In this document: positions 3,774 to 28,678 of the stretch, piece after piece
Layout: each line of letters starts with the position of its first letter
How positions within the stretch are numbered: position 1 is the stretch's first letter
NCBI RefSeq assembly: GCF_900167395.1
Contig: NZ_FUWK01000002.1
Location: 30,001 to 62,000, forward strand
Source of the DNA: Nitrosomonas europaea
GTDB taxonomy: Bacteria; Pseudomonadota; Gammaproteobacteria; Burkholderiales; Nitrosomonadaceae
Reading direction: 5' to 3'
DNA length: 32,000 bases
Notes under the pieces: generated by a model
The model's input: only the letters and a program-made list of their open reading frames with translations
Told to the model about the DNA's origin: nothing
Databases searched by the model: none
Position numbers and translations under genes: made by a program

Positions 3774-3782
3774 TTTTTTGTC

Positions 3783-4868: not shown

Positions 4869-4871
4869 GCC

Positions 4872-6131: not shown

Positions 6132-6159
6132 CTGCTGAAATAAAAATCAGGCTGATCAC

Positions 6160-8366: not shown

Positions 8367-8388
8367 CGTAGTAGTCAGTTTCTCAAGG

Positions 8389-8579: not shown

Positions 8580-8835
8580 CATTTCCACCAGAATAGTTTC
8601 TACCGGTTGCATTATGGTTTCGCTGAAAACAGCATGTCAATGCGATTCTCAGGGATCCTCTGAAAATCATTGACGAGGCAGTCAGCCAAGGCAAAAACAG
8701 ATAAAAAGCGCAGTTTACAAGTACTAAACAACCACCGGCTAAAGCCTGTTCCTGTCCCATCCTCACACAACGTCGCGCCATCTCTTACACAGCGCACTAC
8801 TCAATCAAATCAGGTGTAATACCACGTCTCGAAGG

Positions 8836-8919: not shown

Positions 8920-9918
8920 ATGTCAATGCAATCCCGATCCTCTCCCATGACAATGGTCCTGCCAGTCATCTTTTTCCTGGCTGCCTGCAGTGGTTCCCAA
9001 CCGGAAGCGATGCCGGACAAGCCCGCCAAGGTAGAACCGATCGGCCACGAAACCAATCTCCTCAAGCTCACCCTGTCAACACAAGCCATCCAGCGTCTCG
9101 GTATCGAGACTGCACCCGCCAGCGACAGTAAAAATACAAATAACATAATGCTGCACGGCGAAGTCATCATTCCTCCGGCAGGTGGCGGGGTCCCGGTAAC
9201 ATCAGCGAGCGATCTTGCCACGCTCGCATCAAACCAGGCCCGCGCCGATGGTGACGTGATGCGGACCCGCGCGGAACTCGATATCGCGCTCAAGAATGCA
9301 GCGCGCGCCGAGGCGCTCGTGCGCGAGGAAGCGGGCAGCGTGCGGCTGCGTGACGAAGCACTGGCTACGGTTGCGGTAGCACGCGCAAACCTGCGCGTTG
9401 CCCAGACCCAGCGGGCGCAATATGGACCGCCGATCACCGCAATGAACCGGACAAGCCAGGTGTGGATCCGCGTGCCGGTTCCGGCCGGAGATGTGTCACG
9501 CATCATCCGCTCGGCACCCGCCCAGATCGCGGCACTCGGCGATGGGAGTACGCGTCGGTCGGCACGACCGGTCGACGGCCCGCCTTCCGCCAATGCAGCT
9601 GCGGCCACGGTCGACCTCTACTACGCGCTCGGCAATGCCGGTACCTCGTTCCGAATCGGGCAGCGCATTGCGGTGGAACTTCCCGCGCAGGGGCAGACCA
9701 GCGGCCTTACCATTCCGTCGTCATCTATCCTGCGCGACATCTACGGCGGTGAATGGGTCTATGTCTCGACCGGCAAACGCAGCTTCGAGCGCAGACGCGT
9801 CGAGATCGCTTCGGTGCAGAACGGCCAGGCTCTTCTCGCGCGGGGCCTCAAACCTGGAATGGAGGTCGTTACCGCCGGTGCCGCGGAATTGTTCGGTACC
9901 GAATTCGGCATAAAATAA
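8920..9918 (+). CDS. efflux RND transporter periplasmic adaptor (membrane fusion protein), lipoprotein
   Basis: Signal peptide with a lipobox (VIFFLAAC|SG), an Ala/Arg-rich coiled-coil hairpin segment ([32 protein letters not shown]...) and a beta-rich C-terminus. It ends 10 nt upstream of the RND pump gene. Confidence 0.85.
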
Positions 9919-9928
9919 GACACGCCCG

Positions 9929-12900
9929 ATGCTGAACTGGCTTGTCACCAACGCCCTGCAGCAGCGCGTTCTCGTGCTGGCGCTTGCTATCATCATGGTC
10001 TTCGTCGGGATCAATACGACGCGCAGCGTCCCACTCGACGTCTTCCCCGAATTTGCCCCGCCGATGGTCGAAATCCAGACTGAGGCGCCCGGTTTGTCGA
10101 CCGAAGAGGTCGAGAGCCTCGTCACTATCCCGATCGAGATGGTGGTCAATGGCGTGCCGGGACTCAAGACACTACGCTCGAAATCAGTACTGGGTCTATC
10201 CTCCGTCGTGATGATCTTCGCTGAAGGCACTGACGTGATCCGAGCCCGACAGCTTGTTCAGGAGCGCGTCGCGGTGGTCACGCCGCGCCTGCCGACCAAT
10301 ATCCGTCCACCCATCATGCTGCCGCCCTTGTCTGCGACGAGCCGGGCCATGAAGATCGGCCTGTCGTCGGATACGCTCGACCAGATAGCGCTGTCGGATG
10401 CGGTGCGCTGGACGATCAAGCCCAAGCTGATGGCCGTGCCCGGTGTCGCCAATGTTGCGGTCTGGGGCCAGCGCGATCGCCAGCTTCAGGTACTCGTCGA
10501 CCCCGCCCGCCTTCGTGCCTCCGGAGTAACGCTGGCCGAAGTCCAGCGCGCGACCGGTGACGCTGCCGTATCCCTGGGTGGTGGTTTCGTGGATACACCG
10601 AACCAGCGCCTTGCGGTGCGCCACCTTTCTCCGCTCGAAACGCCGGAAGATCTCGCCCGTACCGTAGTCAAGCTTGCCAACGGGGCGCCGATCAGGCTGG
10701 GCGATGTCGCGACTGTGAGGGAAGGCCATGCCGCGCCGATCGGTAATGCGATCATCAATGACAAACCCGGCATTCTGCTGATCGTCGAAAAGCAGCAGGG
10801 TGGAAACACCCTGGACGTCACCCGCGGTGTCGAAAAGGCGCTCACGGAACTCAAGCCCGGCCTAACCGGCATCGCAGTCGACAGCACGATCTTCCGCCCG
10901 GCCACCTTCATCGAAAAATCGCTCGGCAACCTCACCGAAGCAATGGCGATCGGCTGCGCGCTGGTCACAATGGTGCTGATCCTTTTCACCAGGGACTGGC
11001 GCTCAGCGACGATCAGCCTCACGGCCATCCCGCTGTCACTACTGGGCGCCGCGCTGATGCTGAGCTGGTGGAATATCAGCATCAATACCATGGTCATCGC
11101 CGGGCTGGTGATCGCGCTCGGCGAAATCGTGGATGACGCGATCATCGACGTCGAGAATATCGGCCGACGATTGCGACTCAACGCCGCGCTCGATGAACCC
11201 AGACCGGCGTTCAACGTCGTTCTCGCAGCTTCGCTCGAAGTCCGCAGTGCGGTGGTATTCGCAAGCCTGATCGTCATGCTGGTATTCCTGCCGATCTTCT
11301 TTCTTGAGGGCGTATCCGGCACCTTCTTCCGCCCGCTCGCCACGGCCTATGTACTGGCGATCGGCAGTTCACTTCTCGTCGCGCTGACGGTAACGCCAGC
11401 ACTCTGCCTTCTGTTGATGCCGCGTGATGGCATCCGGCACGCAGACACGAGCTTCGTGCGCTTTCTCAAGGCACGATACCGCCCTGTCCTGCCGCGCCTC
11501 ATCGAACGGCCAAAACTCGCCGTGATGACGATTGTGGTCGGCCTGACGGTCACCGGCATCGGTTATCTGAGTTTCAAGGACCAGTTCCTGCCAGATTTCC
11601 GCGAAACTGACTTCCTGATGCACTTCGTCGAAAAGCCTGGCACCTCGATCGAAGCGATGGATCGGGTGACGATTCGCGCCAGCAAGGAACTGCGGGCCAT
11701 TCCAGGAGTGCGCAATTTCGGGGCGCATATCGGTCGCGCCGAGGCAGGCGATGAAGTCTATGGCCCCAATTTCACCGAGCTCTGGATCAGTCTCGACGAC
11801 AGCGCAGACTATGATGCGAGCGTCGCGAAGATTCAGGAGGTGATCGACGGTTATCCTGGCCTCCAGCGCGATGTACTCACCTATCTGCGCGAGCGGATCA
11901 AGGAAGTCCTGACGGGAGCCGGGGCCACAATTGTGGTGCGCGTTTACGGGCCAGAGATCGATCAGCTCCGCACGATGGCCGAGCAGGTGAAGACGGCGAT
12001 CGCCAATGTGCCCGGCGTCACTGATCTCAAGGTCGAGATGCAAAGCCTCATCCCCCAGGTCCAGATCAAGCCCAAACCTGAAGCTCTTGCCGCTTATGGG
12101 CTGACCACAGGTGAAGTTCGCCGGGCCGCGGCAACCCTGATCCAGGGCGTAAAAGTCGGCGAGATTTATCGCGACCAGCGCAGCCTCGACGTCACGGTCT
12201 GGGGAACCGAGGAGGTACGCGGCGACCTCCATGCGCTGCGCAACCTGATGATCGAGGCACCGGCTGCGGGCGCAACAGTACAAGGAGCCGCTACCGGCGG
12301 TGCGCAGATCCGGCTCGGCGAGGTCACGGATATCCGCATCATGCCCGCAGCCAACGAGATCAAGCGCGAGAACGGCTCGCGGCGCATCGATATCACGATG
12401 AACATTTCCGGTTCCGATCTCGGCGCGGTGGCGACAGCTGTCGAAACCCGCGTACGTCAAATGAAGTTCGCCAGCGGCTATTACCCCGAATTTCTTGGTG
12501 AATATGCCGCACTCCAGCAATCGCAGCGCCAGCTTCTGACGCTCGGACTGCTGTGTCTTGCGGGTATCCTGCTGTTAGTCTGGCTCGAATTCCGCTCGCT
12601 GCGCCTCACAGGGCTGATCGCACTCAGCCTGCCTTTTGCGCTGGTCGGTGGTGTAATCGCGGTCGCGCTGTCGGGCGGCATCATGTCGCTCGGTGCGCTG
12701 GTCGGATTCGTGACCGTCCTCGGCATTACTGCCCGCAACGCCATCATGATGATCAGCCATTTCCGCCATCTGGAAGAAAAGGAAGGCGAAATGTTCGGAC
12801 GCGCACTGATCTTGCGTGGCACCGAGGAACGGCTGATCCCGATCCTGATGACCGTATCCTGCGCCGCACTTGCACTGCTGCCGCTGGTCGTGCGCGGCAA

Positions 12901-13069
12901 TGCGCCGGGCCACGAGATCGAACATCCGATGGCGCTGGTGATCCTGGGCGGCCTGATCAGCTCGACCGCCCTCAACCTGCTGCTGATGCCCACCCTTTAT
13001 CTGCGCTTCGCCAGGGGATCTCAAATACCTCCGCAACCCGAAGCGCCAGCCGCCAGGGTGACCGCATGA
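9929..13069 (+). CDS. heavy-metal-efflux (CzcA/CusA family) RND inner-membrane pump
   Basis: 1046 aa with the CzcA/CusA-like N-terminus [27 protein letters not shown]...[25 protein letters not shown] and a 12-TM, two-large-loop layout. The TM4 motif [15 protein letters not shown] lies at 11114-11158. Confidence 0.93.
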
Positions 13070-14454
13070 TCAGAATATCCTTATTCAGCCTGGTTGCCCT
13101 CACCTCGCTCGTGGCTTGCGGCACCACCAGCGAAGTGCGTACGCCATCCTCTCTTCCCGCGGCTCAGATGGAGTTTATCGAAGCGCGCACACCGGGTGTA
13201 GTAACCACGGCGCTGCCTGCCCAATGGTGGCATCTCTTTGATGACACTGAGCTCGACGCCCATGTCGAACGGGCGCTCACCGCCAACGCCGATCTGCATA
13301 TTGCCATCGCCAATCTCGAAACAGCCCGCGCGATGGTCCGACAGGCCGACGCAATCCGACTGCCGGCAACTGTCATCGAGAGTGGTGCAGGCCCTGATCA
13401 GGCGGACAAGCAACCCAGTACCTCGTCGATTCCAAAGACGAGCTACGAACTGGGGGCAACGGTTGCCTATGAAATCGACCTGTTCGGGCGATTGAGCAGC
13501 GGTGTCCGTGCCGCTCGTGCCGATGCCGCAGCATCCGCTGCACTGGTGGATGCCGCACGGATCGCGGTCGTCGGCGACACCGTAGCGGCCTATATCGACT
13601 ATTGCGGCGCGGTGCAAACCCGCACGCTGACCAAATCTCTGGTGCGCGCGCATGAACACAGCTTCCAGCTAATCGACCAGCAGTTTCAGGAAGGCGAAGT
13701 TTCGCCACTGGAAGTCGCCCAGGCTCAGACAGTGCTGCAGCGCGCCAGGGCAAATCTCGCCCCGTTGGAAGCAGATCGCCGACGAGCCCTGTTCAGGCTT
13801 GCAACTCTCGAAGGATTTCCACCGTCAGCGACGGATGGATGGCACCTCTCTTGCCACAGCATCCCGAAGATCGAAGTGCCTCTTCCGGTTGGAGATGGAA
13901 CCGCCCTTCTCGCTCGCCGCCCGGACGTCCGCGAAGCAGAGCAGCGCGTCATCGCTGCGACTGCCCGGATCGATATTGCTCACGCGGATCTTTATCCGAA
14001 AATTTCGCTGGGTAGTTCCCTCGGCCTGATCGCCGGCAGGTTCGACGCCATTCTGACGCCACTCATCACCTGGCCCTTCCCCAACCGGAGTGCTGTACGT
14101 GCGAGAATCGCTGCGGCTAAAGGCCAGGAAGCAGCAGCGCTTGCAACTTGGGATGCAGTCATCCTGCGTGCACTGCGCGAGGTTGAAACTGCGCTCGCGG
14201 ATTATCGGGCCGAACAGGTACGCCGCACTGACCTCATGTCTGCACTCATTGAGAGTGAGAAAGCCGTTCGCCGCGCACAAGCGCGCTTCCGTCTCGGTGC
14301 CGACAGCTATCTGCTGGTGCTCGACGCCGAGCGTACCCGAACTGACATCGCGACATTGACGGCCACTTCGGACCTTCGGATCGCTCAGATCCAGATCGCT
14401 CTATTCCGGGCACTGGGTGGCGGATGGAAACAGCCATCAGGACAGGTGAAATAA
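13066..14454 (+). CDS. efflux outer-membrane factor lipoprotein, NodT family
   Basis: ORF 12553..14454, trimmed to the ATG at 13066, which overlaps the pump stop (ATGA). Signal peptide and lipobox [18 protein letters not shown]|G. Two tandem outer-membrane-efflux-protein halves, with the C-terminal ...[10 protein letters not shown] typical of the family. Confidence 0.9.
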
Positions 14455-14466
14455 CCCGATCATAGT

Positions 14467-15153
14467 ATGATGAGCACCATGAGAGTTCTTGTTGCCGATG
14501 ATCATGAAGAAACGCTGAACTTCATCCGGCGCGGACTGACGCAGGCGGGTCATATCGTCTCCACGGTCGACAATGGCCGTGAAGCGCTCTTCCGCGCTAC
14601 CGAGGAAAGCTATGATGCAATTGTCCTCGATCGCATGTTACCCGGACTCGACGGTCTGTCGATCCTCAAAATGTTACGTGCTGGCGGCATCCGAACGCCA
14701 GTGCTGCTGCTCACTGCCATGACCAGGATAGCGGACCGGGTGGAAGGATTGGAGAACGGTGCGGACGATTATCTCGTCAAGCCCTTTGCATTTTCCGAAC
14801 TGCACGCGCGTCTCAACGTGATTATCCGGAGACCTGCCGTTCTGGAACCGGAAACAAGCCTCCGCGTGCTGGACATCGAACTGGACCTCGGCAAGCGTAT
14901 CGCCCGCCGAGGCGGAAGGCGCATCGATCTTCAGCCGCGTGAGCTGCTGATGCTTGAAGTACTTCTGCGTAATCCTCATCGGGTCATGACAAAGACGATG
15001 CTGCTTGAACGTGTCTGGGATTTTGACTTCGATCCTCAGACCAATATTGTCGAAACCCATATCAGTCGCCTGCGCGCGAAGCTCAATGCCGACTTCGATC
15101 AGGATGCGATCATCACAGTCCGCGGCGCAGGCTATATGATCCGCAGCGAATGA
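14467..15153 (+). CDS. OmpR/PhoB-family response regulator
   Basis: Receiver domain (RVLVADDHEE...AIVLDRMLPGLDG...DYLVKPF) plus a winged-helix output domain (LQPRELLMLEVLLRNPHRVMTKTMLLERVWD...VETHISRLRAKL...TVRGAGY). Alternative ATGs at 14470 and 14479. Confidence 0.9.
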   Translation: MMSTMRVLVADDHEETLNFIRRGLTQAGHIVSTVDNGREALFRATEESYDAIVLDRMLPGLDGLSILKMLRAGGIRTPVLLLTAMTRIADRVEGLENGADDYLVKPFAFSELHARLNVIIRRPAVLEPETSLRVLDIELDLGKRIARRGGRRIDLQPRELLMLEVLLRNPHRVMTKTMLLERVWDFDFDPQTNIVETHISRLRAKLNADFDQDAIITVRGAGYMIRSE

Positions 15154-16538
15154 AACTGCATATTCCCCGGACGACGTTCGGCCTTGCTGTCATGGTAAGT
15201 GTGGTGCTTACCGCACTGGCTGTCCTCTCCGGTCTGGTAGGCCGATATTTTGCGCATGAGGAACTTGAGCAACAACTCGATCACCGCATCACCACTGAAA
15301 GCAGCTTACTGATAGAGGAATATGATCGCGGCGGACTTGCTGCCCTTGCTGCCATGGTCGATTCACACCACGATCGTCACGAAAACAGTGGTCTTGGTTA
15401 TCTGCTGGTCGATCATCAGGGGCGCCGGCTGGCAGGCTCACTTCAGGCTGAAGCGCCCAGCAAGGCCGGCTGGCGAGAACACCTTTATGTCGGGAACAAA
15501 ACCACAGGTGATCGCCGCGCACATCAGGCGCTGACTGTAATCCTGCCTGCAGGAGAACGACTGGTTGTCGCTGCAGATCGCATGCCTGTCGAAGAGATCG
15601 ATGCAGTCATCGGCTGGATCACGGCAGGAATGACCTCAGTGATGCTCATGATGGGCATAGGCAGCGCATGGATCCTGGGCCTGATCACCCGGCAGCGTAT
15701 CGACAATATCAGTAAGGTAGCCAATGCAATCGCTGCCGGCGACCTCTCTCGCCGTATCGACCGGAACAATCGTGCAGGTGAGTTCGATCGCCTTGCTGAA
15801 ACGCTCAACCGCATGCTGGATCGGAACGCCGAACTGCTCACCAATCTGAAGCAGATCTCGACCGATATCGCCCATGATCTGCTCACGCCACTCGGCCGAC
15901 TGCAACAACAGCTCGAGCTGGCGCTTACAGACTGTCGGAACACACAGGACTATCGCCACACGATAGAACGCGCGATTGCCACTGCGGTCGAAATTCAACA
16001 GCTCTTTTCCTCTCTGCTCAAAATTTCCGAGATCGAATCCCTCACGCTTCGCAAGACGTTTACCCCGGTATCACTGACGGAAGTCGCTAAACGTGTGACA
16101 GATGCATTTCGCCCTGACATCGAAGAAAATGGCCGTAAGCTGATCGTGCGGCTGGATCACGATCTTCATATCCTGGGTGAACGACATCTGCTATCGCAAC
16201 TGCTGGTCAACCTGATCGAAAATGCCATGCGGCACACGCCTGTCGGGACCACGATCAGCGTCATCCTCAGCCGTGCGGCTGATCACACCATCCTCACAGT
16301 CGAAGATGACGGACCCGGTATTCCAGTCGCCGACAGAGCCCGTGTGATCGAGCGTTTCGTGCGCCTGGAAGCAAGCCGATCTACAAAGGGACACGGCCTT
16401 GGGCTCAGCCTTGTCAAGGCGATCGCGACGGCACATGAGGCGGAACTCATCATGGAAGATAATGCACCAGGGCTGTGTATTCGCCTGTCTTTCACCGCGC
16501 TTCCCATCCGTGATAGAAAGGAGGCAACAAAGGTTTGA
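15150..16538 (+). CDS. sensor histidine kinase (two TM segments, HAMP, HisKA, HATPase)
   Basis: Its ATG overlaps the regulator stop (ATGA). H-box STDIAHDLLTPL, N-box LLVNLIENAMRHT, G1 VEDDGPGI and G2 GHGLGLSLV. A HAMP-like segment follows the second TM helix. Confidence 0.9.
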   Translation: MKLHIPRTTFGLAVMVSVVLTALAVLSGLVGRYFAHEELEQQLDHRITTESSLLIEEYDRGGLAALAAMVDSHHDRHENSGLGYLLVDHQGRRLAGSLQAEAPSKAGWREHLYVGNKTTGDRRAHQALTVILPAGERLVVAADRMPVEEIDAVIGWITAGMTSVMLMMGIGSAWILGLITRQRIDNISKVANAIAAGDLSRRIDRNNRAGEFDRLAETLNRMLDRNAELLTNLKQISTDIAHDLLTPLGRLQQQLELALTDCRNTQDYRHTIERAIATAVEIQQLFSSLLKISEIESLTLRKTFTPVSLTEVAKRVTDAFRPDIEENGRKLIVRLDHDLHILGERHLLSQLLVNLIENAMRHTPVGTTISVILSRAADHTILTVEDDGPGIPVADRARVIERFVRLEASRSTKGHGLGLSLVKAIATAHEAELIMEDNAPGLCIRLSFTALPIRDRKEATKV

Positions 16539-16607
16539 TCAGGGAAAACAATCCGCATTGAATATAGCCATCCTAACGATCCGGACTTTCGCTCCCTCAT
16601 TCCGGAA

Positions 16608-16623
16608 CTATACAAATTGCGAA
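16608..16623. repeat. right arm of the 16-nt imperfect inverted repeat flanking the GC-rich efflux cassette (CTATACAAATTGCGAA)
   Basis: Pairs with 8836-8851 at 15/16 in inverted orientation. It lies about 70 nt after the kinase stop, where base composition returns to host-like values. Confidence 0.4.
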
Positions 16624-16769
16624 GCTGCACTGCTCAGTTGCGGTTGATTAGCTGTAGAACCCGCTTCCTGAAAGTCCAAATCATTCATGGCGAGATATCT
16701 ATCAGTCTCCTGTATATTCACGAATTCGCTAAATCCCCATTACATGAGTATTAGAAAACAGGAGCTTGC

Positions 16770-17579
16770 ATGGTATCTCCACGATTAGTCACTAAAATTG
16801 AAGCAGAAGAACCGACTCTTCGGTTAGCTGTACTCATTGATGCTGACAATGCACAAGCGGCCGTCATTGAAGGACTACTTGCCGAGATTGCGCGATTCGG
16901 GGAAGCAACCGTGAAACGCATCTACGGTGACTTCACCGCTCCTGCAAGCGCTTCCTGGAAAAAAGTACTTCAAAAATATGCCATCAAACCTGTTCAGCAG
17001 TTTGCATATACAACAGGCAAAAATGCCACGGACAGCACACTCATCATCGATGCGATGGATTTACTCTATACCCGAAAGTTTGATGGATTCTGCCTGATTA
17101 CAAGCGACAGTGATTTCACCGGCCTTGCAATGCGTTTACGTGAAGAGGGGCTTACTGTTCTCGGCTTCGGGGAGAAGAAAACACCCGAGGCTTTCCGCAA
17201 TGCCTGCCATAAGTTTGTGTTTACCGAGGTTCTTCGCCCGGATACAGCAACTGAATCAGCTGCACAACGAACCAAAAAGACAGAAAATGATCAGAAATCA
17301 TCCTCGCCACAGCCTGCTGCTCAGGCGCCGGAAACAAAACAGGCATTCCCCAGGAAATTTGTTCTGGCCGCACTCGAACAATCAAGCGATGATGCCGGGT
17401 GGGCAAATTTAGGCAATTTCGGCAACTACCTCAACAAGTTACAACCTGATTTCGACTCCCGACTTTACGGTTACAAAAAACTCTCTGATCTTGTCAAAGC
17501 CAGAACAGATCTCTTCGTAACCGAAGAACGGCAGGTACCGGGATCAACACAAAAAGCCTTGTATCTTCGTGCCAAATAA
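16770..17579 (+). CDS. NYN (LabA/PIN-like) nuclease domain protein with C-terminal OST-HTH/LOTUS domain
   Basis: NYN acidic motifs are intact (LAVLIDADNA; DSTLIIDAMDLL; CLITSDSDFTGLAMRLREEG). A low-complexity linker (TKKTENDQKSSSPQPAAQAPETK) follows. The C-terminal LOTUS-like segment reads DDAGWANLGNFGNYLNKLQPDFDSRLYGYKKLSDLV. An AGGAG motif lies 7 nt upstream of the ATG. Confidence 0.85.
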   Translation: MVSPRLVTKIEAEEPTLRLAVLIDADNAQAAVIEGLLAEIARFGEATVKRIYGDFTAPASASWKKVLQKYAIKPVQQFAYTTGKNATDSTLIIDAMDLLYTRKFDGFCLITSDSDFTGLAMRLREEGLTVLGFGEKKTPEAFRNACHKFVFTEVLRPDTATESAAQRTKKTENDQKSSSPQPAAQAPETKQAFPRKFVLAALEQSSDDAGWANLGNFGNYLNKLQPDFDSRLYGYKKLSDLVKARTDLFVTEERQVPGSTQKALYLRAK

Positions 17580-17759
17580 TTTTTTGACATAGGCACTCAA
17601 TCTCTTTTTAGTTACCAGACACTGCACCGTACAAGTATTGCAGCACCATCCAGCTCTATTGCGCATGGTCGGGATCAGATCACGAATCAAGAAAAAACAG
17701 GTATAACAAAAGTCATTGATCCTGGAGCTGATCTGCCCAGGAATTTCCTGCCAGTGAGA

Positions 17760-18008
17760 ACTGGAGATTCTAGGCCTGTTTCGGACAACAGTAGCATCAT
17801 CAGCGTGGTGCAGCTCTGTTCGGATGGATACATACGCGAGGTATGCAATACCGGAGTGCGCCCTGTCAGATCGAGTAGACGAGATACTTCACGCTTGTCC
17901 CGCAAACGGAACAGCCAGTCACAGGCGCGGTTGCTGTGCACGCAGCAGACGGGCCAGCGCAATCGTAGCCCGGACATCGGATAATGCATCATGTGCACTG
18001 TCATGTAC
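17760..18008 (-). pseudogene. internal fragment of a second, diverged exodeoxyribonuclease I gene (sbcB relic), frameshifted and truncated by the IS element
   Basis: It encodes ...DWLFRLRDKREVSRLLDLTGRTPVLHTSRMYPSEQSCTTLMMLLLSETG. The intact SbcB reads YDWLFRLRDKRAAGNLLDMKTHAPVLHTSRMYSSEYGCTTLVMPLLPETG. Positions 17901-18008 align to 7741-7850 with 5 mismatches plus a 2-nt deletion. The homology stops exactly at the IS inverted repeat. Confidence 0.85.
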
Positions 18009-18028
18009 TAACCTGAGTTCGGGATAAG
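18008..18028. repeat. IS982-family terminal inverted repeat (one end)
   Basis: CTAACCTGAGTTCGGGATAAG is the exact reverse complement of 18987-19007. Base 18008 could equally belong to the sbcB relic. Confidence 0.8.
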
Positions 18029-18031
18029 CCC

Positions 18032-18908
18032 TCAAGCTTTGACCAAGGTATTGACCCTGGTCAGATTCAAGGTAGGTTTGTTATCGGACAAACAGTAAGC
18101 GACGATACCAGCCATTAGGTTAACGACAAAATTGAAGAAAGAGCGATGTCGGGTGTGTTTGATCTGGCAAAGATTCTTCAATTCATCAAAGACGGTTTCA
18201 ATCAGGGAACGGCGACGTAGAATGGCTTTCTCGAACCCGGTACGAGGCGCAGGCTTCATGTTTTTCTTGAAGGGAGTAATGAGTTGAAGGTTTTGCCGGT
18301 CCAGTGTTTCAGTGAGCCACTGGGCAAGGTAGCCTTTATCGGCAAACAACTGGCCGAACAGTCCCTGACAGAGATCGGGCATGGGTTTACGATCGTCAAC
18401 ATTACCGGCAGTGAGCCGCAGACGGATCAGTTCACCCCTGGAATTGATGATGGCATGGAGTTTGAATCCATAGAACCAGCCCATCGAAGTCTTGCCGCGT
18501 CTGGCGCTGTCGGCAAAGACGCGATGGCGGGCGATACGCCGGTTATCGCAAACGGCGATTGCAGTAGCATCAGCGATGGAAATCCCGTCACACTGGCCTT
18601 TGAGCATCTCGAATAAGGCTGCCAAAGGAGCTACACAGCGGGCAGGAGTTCCACACATCGTTGATAGCTTGGCAGCTTTGGAAACTCAGCCTGCCAGTGA
18701 CGACACACGTAAACCAAGTAAAAACTCTTGAACTGGCGAAAGCGCAATTGATGGAACAAAACAGTTAAGGTCATTAACTCCGATAAGCTAACTCGCTGCG
18801 GCGTTTGCGCTTTTTTACCCCTGCTTCCAGAAGATGGCGCTCTAAAGCAGGCTCGAACTGGTGGCAGAAATCATCTGTGAGGCAAAAAAGTTCGGTTAAA
18901 CTGTCCAT
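18032..18908 (-). pseudogene. IS982-family transposase, interrupted by two frameshifts
   Basis: Three consecutive pieces lie in three different frames. Piece 1 runs from the ATG at 18908: MDSLTELFCLTDDFCHQFEPALERHLLEAGVKKRKRRSELAYRS*. Piece 2 runs from about 18780: ELMTLTVLFHQLRFRQFKSFYLVYVCRHWQAEFPKLPSYQRCVELLPAV*. Piece 3 is the 208-aa ORF 18032..18658, which carries the catalytic core. Confidence 0.8.
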
Positions 18909-18986
18909 GAGCGTCTCCAGGATGCGATCGATTTGTTTGTGGAAACATAATCTTACGCAAAAAGGCTGGCGCTCAACTCCTCTTTT

Positions 18987-19007
18987 CTTATCCCGAACTC
19001 AGGTTAG
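18987..19007. repeat. IS982-family terminal inverted repeat (other end)
   Basis: CTTATCCCGAACTCAGGTTAG is the exact reverse complement of 18008-18028. Confidence 0.8.
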
Positions 19008-19412
19008 GTAAGCCTATTCAGATCGTTAAATATATGAGTTCGTTTTTCCAGCTTATCCCGGAGTGATCAGATTCTGACAAAGATTCACTGGATCGATCCA
19101 AGTAGGGCACAGCCTTCGGGAATGCCATTCCCCAAGTGAAGAACGCAGAAGCACATCGTATCCCAATTAAAGCCTCGCACCAAACTCCCGTTAATAATCA
19201 TTGACAGACTTATTTTACCTGCCAGCTCAGCTGGACAAGGTTCTTGAACAATCTGCCAACCAAGGAAATAAAATGATTCTGATACTAGAGGCTTTAGAAA
19301 AAGCCGGAATAAGGCAAGTTAAGCTACGATAAATAAAATTATTATCGACCCTCCAACTGCCAAAAATAAATTTTTCCTCCTCCTTTGTTATGACTTAAAG
19401 CGAGATAATGAA

Positions 19413-19697
19413 ATGCTTCAATTTTTGCCCGCCATTGCCCCAGCTACTATCTTCTTAGTTAAAGCTGTATTTAAAAAGCAGATTGAAGACGGTATTGTTG
19501 ACGGTATTATTACAGCTAAATATGAAGTAGAAAAAAATATATGGAGAGCACTTTTCTCCACATTTTTCAACATTTCCATTAATGTCACATTACTAACTTC
19601 TTCTGTATATCTTTTACCATTTATTACAAGTAAAGAAATAGTCATTTACATAATTTGTATGTGTATATCTTGGCTCTATATTTTATTCTTTATATAG
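19413..19697 (+). CDS. hypothetical small membrane protein (possibly the 5' half of a frameshifted gene)
   Basis: 94-aa ORF in very AT-rich DNA with about three hydrophobic helices (LPAIAPATIFLVKAVF; FFNISINVTLLTSSVYLLPFI; IVIYIICMCISWLYILFFI). I recognise no family. Confidence 0.4.
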   Translation: MLQFLPAIAPATIFLVKAVFKKQIEDGIVDGIITAKYEVEKNIWRALFSTFFNISINVTLLTSSVYLLPFITSKEIVIYIICMCISWLYILFFI

Positions 19698-19854
19698 CGC
19701 AATTAAGAATACGCCTTTAGTATTAAAATTTGTTTTTGATCATAAATTAAATCTAAAGGAATATATTCGTAGTGAAATTTATATAGAAGCGCATAGAAAA
19801 GCACACTATCAAATTAGCGAAAAAAATATTATTATTAGAATATTAAATAATTTT

Positions 19855-20115
19855 TTGGGGGAGTCTGCATCATCTATAGCATCTACAATTTCCCGCAAAA
19901 CAACTAATATAGTTATAAAAAAAGTGATGTCTATTGCATTTATATTAATTGTTCTTTTACTGGTATATTCATTAATATTTAGAATGATGATAGCCCCCTT
20001 AATTATTGAGAATGCCACACAGTTTAATGTGTTTCAGGCCGCTATTTACCCGTTACTCTATGCGATTGATTATTTTTTCAACACAAATTCGGTCTCATGG
20101 CTTATGTACGTATAG
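19855..20115 (+). CDS. hypothetical small membrane protein (possibly the 3' half of the same frameshifted gene)
   Basis: The ORF track start is a TTG. The same frame is open back to 19654 with no ATG, GTG or TTG, and it overlaps the end of the upstream ORF. Two hydrophobic helices (VMSIAFILIVLLLVYSLIF; FNVFQAAIYPLLYAIDYFF). Confidence 0.4.
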   Translation: MGESASSIASTISRKTTNIVIKKVMSIAFILIVLLLVYSLIFRMMIAPLIIENATQFNVFQAAIYPLLYAIDYFFNTNSVSWLMYV

Positions 20116-20335
20116 CAAGGTGTTATAACCAGCGTACTTCGCAAGAAAGTCGCAATAACACTGCATCTAAATACTGTGACACCCGCCATTTTTCTATTGT
20201 AGGTAGCCACCCCTCAAATCAGATATATCCAAAAATTAACTACTTTATGTATTAACCCAACCGGAACCAGACGCGTATCAAAACTCAACTATTCAGTAAT
20301 AATCTAAAGGAAGCAGATGCAGGTTTTTCAGTGAT

Positions 20336-21181
20336 CTATAACCCCAGGCGTTGCCAGATTTTTGTGGGTAGTACGGCGGAGTTGAGTGTGTAGAAATGCA
20401 GGCCGGGTGCGCCGGCTTCCAGCAGACGAGCACATAACGCTGTGACGACATCCAGCCCGAATGCCTGGATAGACGGAATATCATCACCGAAGCTTTCCAG
20501 TTTTCTGCGAATCCAGCGTGGAATTTCTGCTCCACAGCCATCCGAAAATCTTGCCAGTTGAGAAAATTTGCTGATCGGCATGATGCCGGGAACGATCGGG
20601 ATATTCAGATCCGCAGCTTCACACATCTCTACGAAATGCAGATAGGCATCCACGTTATAGAAAAACTGGGTAATCGCTGCATTGGAACCTGCTTCGACTT
20701 TTCGTCTGAAATTGGTGAAATCCTCCAGAGCGGAGCGGGCTTGTGGATGATATTCCGGATAAGCCGCCACTTCGATCCAGAAGGTATCACCGAACTCCTT
20801 GCGGATAAATGCTACCAGCTCGTTGGCGTAGCGGAATTCTCCCGCCTGCGCCATGCCGGAGGGTAAATCACCACGTAGCGCCACAATGCGGCTGATACCG
20901 TGACTGTGATATTTCTCAAGGATCGAACGGATATTGTCACGCGTGGAGCCGATACAGGAAAGATGGGGCGCTACCGGATAGCCTTCTGCCTGAATTTCCA
21001 GCACGGTTTCGAGCGTGCGTTCACGAGTGGATCCGCCGGCACCAAACGTCACCGAAAAAAACTTCGGATTGAACTGAGCAAGCTGTATGCGCGTTGCCCG
21101 CAGCTTTTCCATGCCTTCCGGTGTCTGCGGCGGGAAAAATTCAAAACTGAATGTGGGGGTAAATTTTTTCTGGGATTGCAT
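20336..21181 (-). CDS. metF: 5,10-methylenetetrahydrofolate reductase
   Basis: 281 aa starting MQSQKKFTPTFSFEFFPPQTPEGMEKL... with the canonical MetF N-terminus (SFEFFPP) and full length. It lies downstream of ahcY. Confidence 0.95.
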   Translation of the reverse strand: MQSQKKFTPTFSFEFFPPQTPEGMEKLRATRIQLAQFNPKFFSVTFGAGGSTRERTLETVLEIQAEGYPVAPHLSCIGSTRDNIRSILEKYHSHGISRIVALRGDLPSGMAQAGEFRYANELVAFIRKEFGDTFWIEVAAYPEYHPQARSALEDFTNFRRKVEAGSNAAITQFFYNVDAYLHFVEMCEAADLNIPIVPGIMPISKFSQLARFSDGCGAEIPRWIRRKLESFGDDIPSIQAFGLDVVTALCARLLEAGAPGLHFYTLNSAVLPTKIWQRLGL

Positions 21182-21241
21182 CGGGATTCACTTCCATGAG
21201 TTGCGACCCTGTAAGAAGGGCAACGGTGAAAATCAATGAAG

Positions 21242-21278
21242 CAAAGCCGGGAAACTCTATCGCTGTTTCCCGGCTTTG
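21242..21278 (-). terminator. 14-bp perfect stem-loop between ahcY and metF (terminator, attenuator or RNA-stability hairpin)
   Basis: CAAAGCCGGGAAAC (21242-21255) pairs perfectly with GTTTCCCGGCTTTG (21265-21278) around a 9-nt loop. On the transcribed strand it is followed by GCTTCATTGATTTT. Confidence 0.5.
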
Positions 21279-21351
21279 ACAGGTTGAGCATAGCAACTCC
21301 GGAAAAAGCCCCGGGAGTCATCAAACCCCGGCGCAGTTTTTCAGAGTGCTT

Positions 21352-22788
21352 TTAGTACCGGTACATTTCCGGTTTATAGGGCCCGTTCTTGTCGAGGTTA
21401 AGGTAATGCGCCTGTTCATCGGTCAGTTCAGTCAGCTTCACACCCAGTTTACCCAGATGCAGCCGTGCAACCATTTCATCGAGGCGTTTAGGCAGTACAT
21501 ATACCTTCTTCTGGTAGTCTTTACCATTTTGCCAGAGCTCTATCTGCGCCAGCACCTGATTGGTAAACGAACTGGACATGACAAAAGATGGATGGCCGGT
21601 AGCACACCCCAGGTTGACCAGACGCCCCTGTGCCAGCACGATAATACGGCGGCCAGTCGGGAAGATCACATGATCGACTTGTGGTTTGATGTTTTCCCAC
21701 TGGTATTTCTGAACCGAAGCGATGTCGATCTCGGAATCGAAGTGGCCGATATTGCATATGATCGACTGATCTTTCATTTTCAGCATGTGATCGTGGGTAA
21801 TCACACGAAGATTGCCGGTAGCGGTGACGAAAATATCTGCTTTATCGCAGGCATCGTCCATGGTCACCACACGGTATCCCTCCATCGCTGCCTGCAATGC
21901 ACAGATCGGATCGATCTCGGTGATCCAGACCGTTGCTCCCAGGCCACGCAATGATTGTGCACATCCTTTGCCGACATCGCCATAACCGCACACCACGGCG
22001 ATTTTTCCGGCAATCATCACATCGGTTGCACGCTTGATGCCATCCACCAGTGATTCGCGGCATCCATAGAGATTGTCGAATTTGGATTTGGTGACTGAAT
22101 CATTGACATTGATTGCCGGAAACGGGAGTTCGCCTTTCTTTTCCATTTCGTACAGGCGATGGACACCAGTCGTCGTTTCTTCAGTCACACCGCGAATTGC
22201 GGCAAGATTACGCGAATACCAGCCCGGATGACTGGCAAGACGGCTGCGGATGGAAGCAAACAGGACTTGTTCTTCTTCATTGGTCGGATTGGCGATCACG
22301 GAAGGATCGCGCTCAGCCTTGCTGCCGAGAATGAGCAGCAGGGTCGCATCTCCGCCATCATCCAGAATCATATTGGCAGTATGCGAACCATCACTGGCCC
22401 ATTCAAATATCTGGTGAGCGTAATCCCAGTATTCTTCCAGCGATTCTCCCTTGTAAGCGAATACCGGAATGTTACGGGCAGCAATCGCTGCGGCAGCATG
22501 ATCCTGAGTAGAGAAAATGTTGCAGGAAGCCCAGCGGACTTCCGCGCCCAACGCTACCAGTGTCTCGATCAGTACGGCTGTCTGGATGGTCATGTGCAGG
22601 GAGCCTGCAATCCGCGCACCTGCCAGCGGTTTCTTGTCGGCATATTGCTCACGCAATGCCATCAGACCGGGCATTTCTGTCTCGGCAATGGCGATTTCCT
22701 TTCTGCCCCAGTCTGCCAGTGACAAATCGGCCACCTTGCAGTCGGTAAAAACAGAATTATCCACAACGGGGTTGATTGTTGCACTCAT
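21352..22788 (-). CDS. ahcY: adenosylhomocysteinase (S-adenosyl-L-homocysteine hydrolase)
   Basis: ORF 21352..22803, trimmed to the ATG at 22788 ([49 protein letters not shown]...). A GGAG motif sits 9 nt upstream. NAD-binding sequence [17 protein letters not shown]. The C-terminus is ...YKPEMYRY. Confidence 0.95.
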
Positions 22789-22810
22789 AACACATCTCCG
22801 CAAAAGTGAA

Positions 22811-22877
22811 AGAGCGCCGTTGTTGGGTTGTCCATTGGTACGAGCCTCACGGAATTGACCGCTGCAGCGCTCCTCGG
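22811..22877 (-). promoter_or_regulatory. SAH riboswitch (S-adenosylhomocysteine-sensing leader of ahcY-metF)
   Basis: The minus-strand RNA reads CCGAGGAGCGCUGCAGCGGUCAAUUCCGUGAGGCUCGUACCAAUGGACAACCCAACAACGGCGCUCU. It contains the conserved blocks I recall for the SAH element (GAGGAGCGCUGC ... AGGCUCG ... CAACGGCGCUC). GAGCGC/GCGCUC can form P1, and CGAG/CUCG can form the pseudoknot. The position immediately 5' of ahcY is the canonical context in beta-proteobacteria. Confidence 0.8.
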
Positions 22878-22919
22878 TACCAGTGGAACTTCATTCAGCC
22901 TGAATGACCGTGAAAATGG

Positions 22920-24083
22920 TCAGATACCTGCATCTGCTTTGAGCTGCTCTGCCATGTCAGTTTTTTCCCAGGTAAAGCTGGGTTCTTCCCGGCCAAAATG
23001 ACCATAAGCAGCTGTTTTGCCATAAATCGGACGCAGCAGATCCAGTTCGTGAATGATGGCCCGAGGCCGTAAATCAAAATGTCTGGCAATCAGTTCAGCA
23101 AGTTTCCCGTCCGGGATTTTCCCGGTACCGAAGGTTTGCACCATCAGCGAGACCGGCTTTGCCACTCCGATCGCATAGGCCACCTGGACTTCGCATTTAC
23201 GCGCCAGGCCGGCCGCAACAATATTTTTGGCCACATAGCGTGCAGCATAAGCGGCTGAACGATCCACTTTGGAAGGATCCTTACCGGAAAAAGCGCCCCC
23301 TCCATGATGTGCCGTCCCACCGTAGGTATCCACGATGATCTTGCGCCCGGTCAACCCGCAATCCCCCATCGGCCCGCCCACCACGAAACGGCCAGTGGGG
23401 TTGATCAGATATTGAATATGATTGCTCAGCATCTCGGCCGGTAAAACCGGCTTGATGACTTCTTCGATAACGCCTTCAACCAGTTCATCACGAGGAACAT
23501 CGGGAGAATGCTGGGTTGAGATGACGATCGTTTCGATGTTTTTCGGGAATCCATCTTCATAACGAACGGAAACCTGGGATTTGGCATCCGGACGCAGCCA
23601 TGACAATCTGCCGCTTTTCCTCAGTTTTGCCTGTTGCTCGACCAGACGATGCGCATAGTAAATCGGCAACGGCATCAGTTGCGGTGTTTCATCGCAGGCA
23701 TAACCGAACATCAGTCCCTGGTCTCCAGCCCCCTGATCCATTTCCTCGTCTTTACTGCGATTTACCCCCTGAGCAATATCGGGAGATTGTTTGTTGAAAG
23801 CAGTCAATACAGCGCAAGTGCTTGCATCAAAGCCGATCTCGGAACTGGTATAACCGATTTCGCGCACGATACCCCGGGGAATGGCGTTGTAATCGATCGT
23901 GGCATCAGTCGTGATTTCACCGGACAAGACGATCAACCCCGTGCTGCACATAGTCTCGCAGGCTACACGTGCATGAGGGTCCTGTTGCAGGATGGCATCG
24001 AGAATGGCATCCGATATCTGATCGGCAACCTTGTCGGGATGGCCTTCAGATACTGATTCAGAAGTAAAAAGATAGTTACTCAT
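22920..24083 (-). CDS. metK: S-adenosylmethionine synthetase
   Basis: 387 aa starting [32 protein letters not shown]..., with [10 protein letters not shown] and [19 protein letters not shown]. Unmistakably MetK. Confidence 0.97.
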
Positions 24084-24380
24084 ATTAGTTTTATTGATTG
24101 GATTTGGGTTATGAATGAGATAATACTTACTCGTGCAAGAGTAAAGCCAGTTTCGAATTCGAGGCCGAAGATAATAGCGGGTTATAACGACATGTTGCAG
24201 GAATTGCCTTAATGTGCTGTTGCATGAGCATTCGGATTATTCCAGAAATTCATATAAAAATCATTGCTCCTTTTACTGGATATACTCCGGTTCAGGAAAT
24301 GCAGATGCAATAATCCGTTATTTTTTCGATTTGATTCTTTGAAAAAAGGACATGATTCCGATTATTGACGGAGGTTTCCA

Positions 24381-25079
24381 ATGAATACTGTTTTGATTAC
24401 GGGTGCCAATCGAGGGATAGGTCTGGAGTTTGCCAGACAATATGCTGCCGATGGCTGGCAAGTGGTGGCCTGCTGCCGGCAACCGCAGCAGGCTGAAGCG
24501 CTGAACCGGTTGGCTGATCAGTATAAAGATCGATTTTCCATTCACCGGCTCGATGTCAGAGAACTCGCAGAAATCGATCAGTTGTCACACAAGCTGCAAG
24601 ATCTGTCCATTGATATTCTGATCAACAATGCCGGTGTTTACCCGCATGCACAAAACGGGGAATTCGGTCGTATCAGCTATGATGACTGGATGGAAGCTTT
24701 CAGGGTAAATACATTCGCTCCCCTCAAAATGGTCGAAGCACTGATTGAACAGATTGCCTGCAGCCAATTGAAAATCGTTGCCACCATCACCAGCAAGATG
24801 GGCAGTATCGCCGATAACCAGCGCGGTGGCAGTTATATTTACAGATCCAGCAAAGCTGCCGTTAACACGGTAGTCAAAAGCCTTGCCATCGATCTGCAGC
24901 CACGCGGCATTATCGCGGTGCTGCTGCATCCGGGTTGGGTGCAAACCGATATGGGTGGACGGGGTGCACTGATCTCGACAAAACAGAGTGTTACCGGGAT
25001 GAAAAGTATTCTGGATAGAGTGACTCACTCCGATACGGGTAAATTCATTGCCTATGATGGGCAACATATACCCTGGTAA
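24381..25079 (+). CDS. short-chain dehydrogenase/reductase (SDR) family oxidoreductase
   Basis: TGANRGIGLEF cofactor motif, NNAG, and a catalytic YRSSK (YxxxK). 232 aa. A GGAGG motif lies upstream of the ATG. Confidence 0.85.
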   Translation: MNTVLITGANRGIGLEFARQYAADGWQVVACCRQPQQAEALNRLADQYKDRFSIHRLDVRELAEIDQLSHKLQDLSIDILINNAGVYPHAQNGEFGRISYDDWMEAFRVNTFAPLKMVEALIEQIACSQLKIVATITSKMGSIADNQRGGSYIYRSSKAAVNTVVKSLAIDLQPRGIIAVLLHPGWVQTDMGGRGALISTKQSVTGMKSILDRVTHSDTGKFIAYDGQHIPW

Positions 25080-25122
25080 TTTCTGCCAGCCAATCGAGCG
25101 AAATTTTTTTATCAAACCCTGG

Positions 25123-25599
25123 ATGCACTCATCTCACGTGGTAAAGCTGGATAGTGAAGCAGCGACCCTGGCACTTGGAGAACAGCTTGCAACCCTGTTT
25201 CATCCGGGCCTGACCGTATTCCTGTATGGCGACCTGGGGGCGGGCAAAACCACGCTTGCACGCGGCATCCTGAAAGGGCTGGGTCATCACGGTAAAGTCA
25301 GAAGCCCCACCTATAACCTGGTTGAAATCTATAAACTTTCTAGGTTATACTTGTATCACTTTGATTTTTATAGATTCAATGACTCATTAGAGTGGGAAGA
25401 AGCAGGTTTTCGGGAGTATTTCAATCAGGATTCGATCTGCCTGGTGGAATGGCCTGAAAAAGCAGGGGAATTTCTGCACGCGGCTGATCTGGAAATACGG
25501 ATCAGCTATTCTGGAACAAGAAGAATCGCTGAATTTAGCGCGGCAACAGAGGCGGGAGAACAATGCTTATCACACTGGCAAAAACGGGTATCCGATTGA
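25123..25599 (+). CDS. tsaE: tRNA threonylcarbamoyladenosine (t6A) biosynthesis ATPase TsaE
   Basis: ORF 25048..25599, trimmed to the ATG at 25123. Walker A sequence YGDLGAGKTTLARGI followed by SPTYNLVEIY and HFDFYR, the TsaE/YjeE signature. It is followed by an amidase gene, as in the conserved yjeE-amiB arrangement. Confidence 0.85.
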   Translation: MHSSHVVKLDSEAATLALGEQLATLFHPGLTVFLYGDLGAGKTTLARGILKGLGHHGKVRSPTYNLVEIYKLSRLYLYHFDFYRFNDSLEWEEAGFREYFNQDSICLVEWPEKAGEFLHAADLEIRISYSGTRRIAEFSAATEAGEQCLSHWQKRVSD

Positions 25600-26906
25600 A
25601 TCGATTCAGCACCAGATTACTCACCTGCTTTTCACTTCTTGTTGCAACTCTCTTCCTGCCGCCGCTTTCATACGGCAACGGAGCGGTTGCCGGAACGCAA
25701 ATCACTGCTGCCCGCTATTGGGCCGACTCTGCGTATACCCGCCTGGCGATGGACGTGAGCAAGCCGGTCAAATACAAGATCAGCACACTCGATGCCCCCA
25801 AAAGAATTGTCATGGACATCGAAAATGTTTCATTCCCCGGTGCACTGGGTGATTTACCGGCCAAACTCAAATCACACGATCCGCTGATCAAAACACTGAA
25901 AGTCAGCCGATTCACCCCACAAACCACCAGACTGGTCGTCGAACTGAAAACCGATGCGGTACCCAAAGCTTTTGCACTGGCTCCTGCCGAGCAATACGGA
26001 CACCGTCTGGTACTGGATATTCACGCCAAGCCGGCTGATAAAGCCCGGAAAACTGAATATACCGATCCGCTGATGGCGCTATTACAGAAAGATACCCAGC
26101 CGGCAGTCACTCCTCCCACCCGGCCCGTTGCTCAGAAAGCGACTCCGAACCTCGTCATGGCTGCGATCAACCGCCAGCCTGCAGGCAAACGAACCTTTGT
26201 CGTTGCAATCGATGCCGGACATGGTGGCAAGGATCCGGGAGCGGTCGGCCCGCAAGGTACCATGGAGAAAAATATAACCCTGTCGATCGCCAAAAAGCTC
26301 AAGGCCAGAATCGACCGGGAACCCGGTATGCGTGCCGTACTGGTTCGTGACGGAGATCATTTCATTTCACTGGCAGGACGCCGCATCAAGGCAAGACAGG
26401 CCAATGCGGATCTGTTCGTATCCATCCACGCCGATGCTGCACCACGCAGGGAAGCGCATGGTGCTTCCGTTTATGCCTTATCGGAAAACGGCGCAACCTC
26501 TACTACGGCAAGCTGGCTGGCAAAAAAAGAGAATGAAGTCGATCTGCTCGGTGGAGTCAAGCTGGATGACAAGGATCGTTATCTGAAGCAAACACTCATC
26601 GATCTGTCCATGAATGCTACGATTGACGACAGCGTCCGGCTGGCAAGCCATGTGCTGAATGAAATCGGATCGGTCAACCATCTGCACAAAAGAAATGTCG
26701 AGCAGGCAGGGTTTGCGGTACTCAAATCACCTGATATTCCGTCCATTCTGGTTGAAACTGCTTTCATCAGCAATCACACCGAAGAAGCGAGACTCAATTC
26801 CGAGGCTTATCAGAACAAGCTGGTCGATGCAATATCTGCCGGGCTCAAGCGTTATTACGGTGGCAAAGGCTGGAAAACACGCGTAGATGTGGCAGATACC
26901 CGGTGA
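25563..26906 (+). CDS. N-acetylmuramoyl-L-alanine amidase (AMIN domain + Amidase_3), AmiB/AmiC-like
   Basis: Signal peptide, then an AMIN domain (ITAARYWADSAYTRLAMDVSKPVKYKISTLDAPKRIVMDIENV...RLVVEL). The Amidase_3 core follows (VVAIDAGHGGKDPGAVG...DLFVSIHADA...VLVETAFISN). The ATG at 25563 overlaps tsaE by 37 nt. An in-frame TTG at 25596 that overlaps the tsaE stop (TTGA) is an alternative start. Confidence 0.9.
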   Translation: MLITLAKTGIRLNRFSTRLLTCFSLLVATLFLPPLSYGNGAVAGTQITAARYWADSAYTRLAMDVSKPVKYKISTLDAPKRIVMDIENVSFPGALGDLPAKLKSHDPLIKTLKVSRFTPQTTRLVVELKTDAVPKAFALAPAEQYGHRLVLDIHAKPADKARKTEYTDPLMALLQKDTQPAVTPPTRPVAQKATPNLVMAAINRQPAGKRTFVVAIDAGHGGKDPGAVGPQGTMEKNITLSIAKKLKARIDREPGMRAVLVRDGDHFISLAGRRIKARQANADLFVSIHADAAPRREAHGASVYALSENGATSTTASWLAKKENEVDLLGGVKLDDKDRYLKQTLIDLSMNATIDDSVRLASHVLNEIGSVNHLHKRNVEQAGFAVLKSPDIPSILVETAFISNHTEEARLNSEAYQNKLVDAISAGLKRYYGGKGWKTRVDVADTR

Positions 26907-26952
26907 CGAAACAGCCTTGCCGGGCTCCATTATAATTGTGTGAAACGACCTG

Positions 26953-28643: not shown

Positions 28644-28678
28644 CGCCAAAGCGGGTAACAGAATTTCTCACTATCGCA

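Follow-up and report, generated by a model that had tools for sequence, protein, structure and literature searches.

Nitrosomonas europaea carries, in the window examined here (the whole stretch of 32,000 nucleotides), a dead 236-base piece of sbcB, the gene for exonuclease I, one half of which is of the type of the resident sbcB and the other half of the type found in N. eutropha. The relic, its parts and the intact gene with which it was compared are arranged as follows:

6876-8366, minus strand: resident sbcB (496 amino acids), with the Pfam RNase_T and Exonuc_X-T_C domains at full length; probable donor of the patch, with the second copy of the repeat at 7763-7849
17718-17771, no strand assigned: filler of 54 nt between the relic and the conserved region downstream of the NYN gene
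17772-18007, minus strand: sbcB relic, SbcB codons 173-251
17772-17920, minus strand: relic segment B, N. eutropha-clade type and decaying, sbcB codons 202-251
17920-17921, minus strand: site of a 2-nt deletion at codon 202 (TAC to T--), which shifts the frame, as read from the alignments
17921-18007, minus strand: relic segment A, N. europaea type, sbcB codons 173-201, region of the HDALSD exonuclease motif

In a gap-free alignment, relic positions 17771-17900 agree with 7611-7740 of the resident at 85 of 130 sites (65.4%) and the adjoining 17901-17920 with 7741-7760 at 18 of 20. The two resident nucleotides 7761-7762 are absent from the relic, and 17921-18007 match 7763-7849 at 84 of 87 sites (96.6%). 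The counts made by hand in the initial annotation (85/130, and five substitutions with one 2-nt deletion) were reproduced exactly. In tblastn the same step appears as a change of frame: amino acids 172-201 of SbcB are matched at 100%, and a second frame then takes over for 200-258, at 63-64% identity; with an E-value of 7e-28 to SbcB, the relic is an SbcB-derived pseudogene fragment. Against the N. eutropha sbcB, blastn gave 83% identity over 240 nt (E 2e-67), and no sbcB pieces besides the relic and the resident were detected in the window by tblastn. The homology does not fade near 17760, as had been supposed, but ends at 17772, after codon 251 (E-T-G), since 17700-17770 are only 28% identical to the resident, which is the random level. 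At the other end the relic does adjoin the insertion sequence as had been described, with the correction that 18008-18011 already belong to the inverted repeat and sbcB DNA begins at 18007.

A functional SbcB is a full-length frame with an N-terminal DEDDh exonuclease domain (RNase_T) and C-terminal ExoI domains. The relic possesses codons 173-251 only, has a frameshift at codon 202 and no start, and its Pfam match (PF08411) covers just 41 positions. The open reading frame at 17687-18004, which is publicly annotated as "hypothetical protein [Nitrosomonas europaea]" and matches PF08411, consists of about 29 codons of sbcB read out of frame, a stretch in frame, and about 28 last codons of filler and NYN-downstream DNA; it is an annotation artefact, and the 2-nt deletion accounts for its switch of frame, as first proposed. 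It can be compared with SbcB gene fragments annotated as hypothetical proteins, but is itself no gene. Rfam, promoter and terminator scans revealed nothing at the relic, which is without a function of its own. None of the fetched loci significantly matched the 54-nt filler, whose alignment to the 3' part of sbcB beyond codon 251 was no better than that of shuffled sequence.

To place both halves of the relic, 80 sbcB loci were fetched from other genomes and compared with them. The identities were:

Segment A (codons 173-201): resident 96.6%; Nitrosomonas sp. HPC101 (L003) 86%; PE_soil1 (L001) 84%; N. eutropha Nm24 (L002) 78%; N. eutropha Nm57 (L004) 76%
Segment B (codons 203-251): resident 70%; HPC101 77%; PE_soil1 72%; Nm24 87.6%; Nm57 87.6%

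Between the two N. eutropha genomes, identity in segment B is 88.3%, and because the relic is 87.6% identical to both, its sequence places segment B inside the N. eutropha clade, as expected if the diverged half is a foreign allele, which the initial annotation had put forward. For comparison, the SbcB protein of the window shows 86-87% amino acid identity to those of N. eutropha and of HPC101 and PE_soil1.

Taking as informative the sites that separate the resident from N. eutropha, segment A is of resident type at 17 of 18 sites (against Nm24) or 18 of 18 (against Nm57), and segment B is of eutropha type at 34 of 42 or 29 of 32, respectively. The maximum chi-square values of 29.5 and 38.8 were reached by none of 10,000 permutations (p<1e-4), and the breakpoint lies at 17909-17924 (an interval of 13-15 nt, with the upper bound at 17922 or 17924). 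The 2-nt deletion falls inside this interval, with a probability by position of p~0.06. The relic thus consists of two parental types joined at a statistically supported breakpoint, which bears out the earlier view of it as a chimera and rules out uniform identity along the fragment. We regard the mosaic itself as close to certain, and the foreign origin of segment B likewise deserves far more confidence than the full history proposed below.

The contrary reading, namely that there is no mosaic and the relic is either a uniformly diverged sbcB homolog with one conserved motif or an assembly chimera, has next to no probability. Segment A does encode the conserved H-x4-D motif region, in which protein identity is high in all orthologs. 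At the DNA level, however, true orthologs reach only 76-90% identity with either resident or relic in this segment, against 96.6% between the latter two, and the synonymous sites are of resident type throughout segment A and of eutropha type throughout segment B. The informative-site test and the independent assemblies together refute it. The relic is present in at least seven independent assemblies (L082, L085, L086, L090, L091, L102 and L103), one of which, L085, is a 2.81-Mb chromosome (CM135170.1), and it is identical in L082, L085, L086, L090 and L102. Strains diverged from the window by 0.6% (L102) and 1.5% (L091) also carry it, that of L091 with two extra changes; hence it is real and older than the latter divergence, and an assembly artefact, which had been named as a possible pitfall, is excluded.

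Segment A is best read, from its sequence, as a gene-conversion patch from the resident sbcB, as had been suggested. It shows three differences to the resident of the window, compared with about 5-8 (counted by eye) to the alleles of L102, L098 and the L093 type, and it agrees with the window-type resident at every site polymorphic among the N. europaea-like strains; the patch is therefore closest to the paralog in its own genome, as expected of intragenomic conversion. On its 3' side it is followed by segment B; on its 5' side the remainder of sbcB has been deleted, and the eutropha-like flank remains beyond the insertion sequence. Since segment A lies between eutropha-like DNA on both sides, two exchange points would be required rather than a single crossover, which argues for a conversion patch. 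All three differences to the resident are synonymous third-position transitions, with no non-synonymous change among them. This is somewhat unexpected in a pseudogene (roughly p~0.03-0.05), and only the difference at codon 177 is clearly derived in the relic, while the other two could be old polymorphisms of the resident. Segment B, by contrast, has four relic-specific replacements (G238S, V243M, P245L and P248S) at positions that do not vary across the six sbcB sequences tabulated (except that P248 is A in HPC101), which is typical pseudogene decay. With no amino acid change in segment A against four in segment B, segment A looks as if a functional copy had renewed it once the fragment was already dead.

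The patch was probably not short by origin, as had been assumed. The europaea-type and eutropha-type sbcB genes are 84-86% identical over nucleotides 1-606, a stretch in which they share perfect runs of 44, 27 and 26 nt, and their identity falls to 69-77% right after nucleotide 606, so that the end of the tract coincides with the point at which strand exchange would lack homology. The conversion tract could have begun in the conserved 5' part and reached up to about 620 nt, of which the last 87 nt would survive, the rest having presumably gone with codons 1-172. In this respect the relic resembles the products of homeologous, RecA-dependent conversion between dispersed bacterial repeats, such as a pseudogene or partial duplicate and its functional paralog, and it shares with them a dead partial copy holding a near-identical patch amid diverged sequence and a tract ending where the identity of the partners collapses. 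It differs in that only the last 87 nt of the tract survive, in the 2-nt deletion at the tract end, and in that direction and timing would have to be deduced.

The linker of SbcB itself (codons ~203-250, window 7614-7760) occurs in several sharply different versions in closely related Nitrosomonas strains: the type of the window and PE_soil1, the type of N. eutropha and HPC101, and a third, local patch in L098 (TATCCGGCAGAATGCGGT). Such variety suggests that the functional gene often recombines internally.

The gene order in the window is glcDEF, ygjP, intact sbcB, a short toxin-antitoxin-like (TA) remnant, efflux genes, a two-component system, the NYN gene, the relic, the insertion sequence, an AT-rich stretch, metF, ahcY and metK. 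Outside the relic, the following features of this region were located:

8920-14454: RND efflux operon
14467-16538: two-component system
16770-17579: NYN-LOTUS gene
8920-17579, plus strand: block bracketed by the two sbcB copies, comprising RND pump, outer-membrane factor, response regulator, histidine kinase and NYN-LOTUS (Pfam)
18005-18007, no strand assigned: GTA, left 3-bp direct repeat, read from the sequence
18008-19007, minus strand: ISNeu2 (IS982 family), 1000 bp, with perfect 21-nt inverted repeats (18008-18028 and 18987-19007) and a transposase frame split into three ORFs
19008-19010, no strand assigned: GTA, right 3-bp direct repeat, read from the sequence
19008-20335, no strand assigned: eutropha-like, AT-rich flank, in Nm24 the immediate upstream region of sbcB, stopping 7 nt short of its ATG

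A 332-amino-acid ORF in the membrane-fusion-protein position of the bracketed block gave no Pfam hit.

The N. europaea-like strains were reached through a look-up of the exact NYN protein. Four of them (L093, L095, L097 and L100) are about 95% identical to the window and a fifth (L098) 98.6-99%; all five lack the relic. In these five, ygjP, sbcB, TA, efflux, two-component and NYN genes are arranged as in the window; among L093-L102 the efflux, two-component and NYN order is the same with or without the relic, and the bracketed block adjoins sbcB in all N. europaea-like strains sampled. In the relic-free strains a DUF2059 gene and other genes replace 17718-20323 (filler, relic, insertion sequence and flank), the flank 19008-20335 is absent, and homology with the window stops at 17717 and resumes at the stop codon of metF. 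Because the relic-free strains share the efflux block, the acquired piece is the block of relic and flank; the efflux block did not arrive together with it. The proposal that the relic is a junction left behind when the island was acquired fails on the same ground, since the efflux, two-component and NYN genes adjoin sbcB even where there is no relic and the variable part is 17718-20323.

In Nm24 the DNA corresponding to window 233-8378 and 19008-29023 is contiguous: in the alignment to this locus, homology ending at window 8378 reaches 9989 and that starting at window 19008 begins at 9993. Of 17 segments compared with Nm24, the flank at 19301-20335 scores highest, at 91.1% identity; 15 genes of the window give 74-88%, with sbcB at 81%. 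Segment B, with 87.6%, is also above the sbcB average despite its decay.

The interval between metF and sbcB varies widely in the genus. In N. halophila and ANs5, metF directly adjoins sbcB; Nm24 has the AT-rich flank alone and Nm57 something else, while HPC101 has a different gene set including a response regulator. Among the N. europaea-like strains the slot between NYN and metF, beside the efflux, two-component and NYN block, is filled in at least three different ways. Within Nitrosomonas, DNA has long been inserted and replaced between metF and sbcB.

As a whole, the following history of import, conversion and truncation seems to us slightly on the probable side; how the import came about, which way the conversion ran and how long its tract was at first, and in what order the steps followed are what we infer from the patterns above. 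A recipient of the N. europaea lineage would already have carried ygjP, sbcB, the TA relic, efflux, two-component and NYN genes, a variable slot and metF. An upstream flank of sbcB together with the first ~251 codons, from the eutropha clade, may then have been imported and replaced the NYN-metF slot, ending cleanly at the stop codon of metF on one side and in an illegitimate join with the 54 nt of filler on the other. Such a boundary pattern would be expected of homology-facilitated illegitimate recombination, a process known in naturally transformable bacteria and in E. coli conjugation according to PMC3240628. The relic block likewise has one clean boundary and one illegitimate join with filler; the likeness is one of boundary pattern, and the join could equally come from a later deletion.

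After the import, two sbcB 5' halves in the same orientation and ~85% identical would have been present, and the resident probably overwrote the 5' part of the import by gene conversion, with a tract ending at codon ~202, where the identity of europaea and eutropha sbcB drops from ~85% to ~70% and where the 2-nt deletion lies. The 5' UTR and codons 1-172 would later have been lost, leaving ISNeu2 at the junction, flanked by its 3-bp repeat, followed by 87 nt of converted and 149 nt of eutropha-type sequence, the latter presumably acquiring its damaging substitutions since.

A donor closer than 87.6% was not found among the 80 loci or by the protein search, the metagenome scan or the search with the flank ORF, so that the attribution to a eutropha-clade donor rests on relative distances over 145 nt and on the 1-kb flank. 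The frame-repaired relic peptide of 80 amino acids, compared with 5.8 billion proteins, retrieved relic ORFs and a few weak fragments and no donor. The metagenome scan for the eutropha-type pattern of segment B added one more relic strain (L091) and an Nm57-like contig (L092), without a closer donor or an intact mosaic allele, and the relatives of the 94-amino-acid flank ORF were only near-identical N. europaea contigs. The state before conversion, a relic with a eutropha-type segment A, is absent as well, segment A being of europaea type in seven of seven relic assemblies. Arguments of parsimony from presence and absence in strains carry little weight if recombination freely exchanges the NYN-metF slot.

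Two other histories deserve consideration. Perhaps the imported allele was already a mosaic, i.e. a functional sbcB of an unsampled Nitrosomonas lineage with a europaea-type 5' part and a eutropha-type middle, so that no local conversion took place. The sbcB alleles of the clade are indeed visibly mosaic, that of HPC101 being eutropha-like in segment B and europaea-like in segment A and those of L098 and L102 carrying patches of their own, and three differences that are all synonymous are what one sees between functional genes. However, segment A matches the resident of this very window wherever N. europaea-like strains vary, the flank beyond the insertion sequence is eutropha-like again, which makes the patch internal, segment A is undecayed next to the four damaging changes of segment B, and no such intact allele was encountered in the 80 genome loci or the metagenome scan. 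We consider this origin unlikely.

Somewhat more doubtful still is the possibility that the relic is the native sbcB, cut at codon 251 when the efflux-NYN block arrived together with a new sbcB by one-sided homologous recombination, the DUF2059 gene coming later to the relic-free strains. The geometry (flank, truncated sbcB, filler, block, TA, intact sbcB) would fit, the direct adjacency of metF and sbcB in N. halophila and ANs5 marks a long-standing insertion site, and the NYN-metF slot is clearly exchangeable between strains. On the other hand, the block adjoins sbcB in every N. europaea-like strain and the relic occurs only in a subgroup diverged by up to ~1.5%; the flank (91%) and segment B (87.6%) are closer to N. 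eutropha than any vertically inherited gene of the window (74-88%, with sbcB at 81%); and conversion would still be needed for segment A. Campbell-type integration of a circle with an sbcB fragment was also considered and rejected, because it predicts that the 5' part of the resident and segment B are of one lineage, which is not so.

The insertion sequence at the junction agrees with ISNeu2 of N. europaea in length, inverted repeats, position of the 208-amino-acid ORF and the 3-bp direct repeat; Table 1 of PMC7335449, after ISFinder, lists 1000 bp, inverted repeats of 21/21, a 208-amino-acid ORF at 350-973 and direct repeats of 3 bp. Its length of ~1 kb, its inverted repeats and a DDE_Tnp_1_3 match (PF13612, 8.9e-72) make it a member of the IS982 family. 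The conserved 5'-AC-3' ends stated for this family in PMC7335449 are not seen in the window element, whose inverted repeats begin CTAACC..., with no outermost AC. In look-ups, the 208-amino-acid ORF of the window copy was not on record and the 44-amino-acid ORF was found only at this site.

The GTA/GTA repeat has the 3 bp of a target-site duplication, would match by chance in 1/64 of cases, and is compatible with a simple insertion without being proof of one. Unlike a simple ISNeu2 insertion, the window site lacks 523 bp of target from the UTR to codon 172, that is, from the end of the flank (7 nt before the ATG in Nm24) to codon 173. Either the element inserted with normal duplication into an existing junction, TAC being present at both deletion ends, or the deletion was mediated by it. 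The former would require a chance event, with an element and its perfect target duplication arriving at the very point where a deletion had already joined the ends; if the deletion was IS-mediated, the matching triplet could be chance (1/64) or reflect a target preference.

A composite transposon carrying the 10.6-kb block was rejected, since no second inverted repeat occurs in the window (allowing up to three mismatches) and the DNA beyond 8378 continues in PE_soil1 and L005 as a TA module. A candidate 5-nt duplication (GTMAG, 8374-8378 and 19008-19012) is explained by a part of the ancestral 5' UTR kept at both sbcB copies.

Over 12.8 kb the window is identical to four assemblies except for seven substitutions within 160 bp of the insertion sequence (18374-18536). 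L091 has the element at this site too, where it matches at only 95% and carries three 1-nt insertions, compared with ~99% identity in its flanks. These observations suggest either exchange between copies of the element or copies collapsed in the assemblies. In L105 (Logan SRR36303344, 1635-2387) ISNeu2 at this site appears to be interrupted by another insertion sequence with an HTH_Tnp_1 ORF.

The two sbcB copies are direct repeats, as had been described, with the difference that the stretch of high identity is 87 nt, or 107 nt with the 18/20 stretch, instead of 110 bp. From start to start, the two 87-nt copies are separated by 10,158 nt. As the initial annotation had foreseen, a crossover between these copies would remove 10.16 kb, namely the 5' part of sbcB, the TA remnant, the efflux, two-component and NYN block and segment B, and leave a 5'-truncated gene next to the insertion sequence (IS-sbcB(173-496)). 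Such a RecA-mediated deletion is possible and should be rare, because the longest perfect runs are just 35 and 28 nt.

Could the relic serve as an archive of a foreign allele in two-way exchange with the working sbcB, or the 87-nt repeat as a deletion switch? We think either role very improbable. An archive would allow linker codons ~203-250 of SbcB, for which at least three sharply different versions exist among closely related strains, to be re-patterned by reverse conversion; a switch would cost a subpopulation the efflux, two-component and NYN block and sbcB function. All the parts are of known kinds (a pseudogene fragment, a homeologous conversion, an ISFinder-listed element and an insertion hot spot). 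The relic is a routine recombination scar and no new system, and the view of sbcB, the efflux pump and IS982 is unchanged. Its worth lies in annotation and genome history: a "hypothetical protein" of N. europaea turns out to be a frameshifted sbcB fragment, N. europaea appears to have received DNA of the N. eutropha clade, and the relic would illustrate, neatly and on a small scale, how a conversion tract ends where homology breaks down. A literature search found no paper on this particular mosaic.

Several further observations concern the neighborhood. On the minus strand at 8379-8600, adjoining the start of sbcB, lies the putative remnant of a VapBC-like toxin-antitoxin pair, in which an antitoxin-like start (MASLTVKNIPEDIYEHLKQAA) runs into stops. 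The 3' end of its toxin gene is ~15 nt before the sbcB ATG, and the same end adjoins sbcB in PE_soil1 and L005 and, more diverged, in HPC101. The flank region 19301-20335 contains two small hydrophobic ORFs (19413-19697 and 19855-20115) without a Pfam hit and with almost no relatives in the collection of 5.8 billion proteins, yet the stretch is 91% conserved with Nm24. A search of E. coli genomes with the window gave no match, so the window is not enterobacterial. Conservation of the NYN-LOTUS gene (16770-17579) is unusually high: its protein is identical in strains whose neighboring histidine-kinase gene differs by 3.8%, and the only seven differences among its 810 nt all affect third codon positions. 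Upstream of ahcY, on the minus strand at 22805-22882, is an SAH riboswitch (RF01057, 47.7 bits), a known arrangement.
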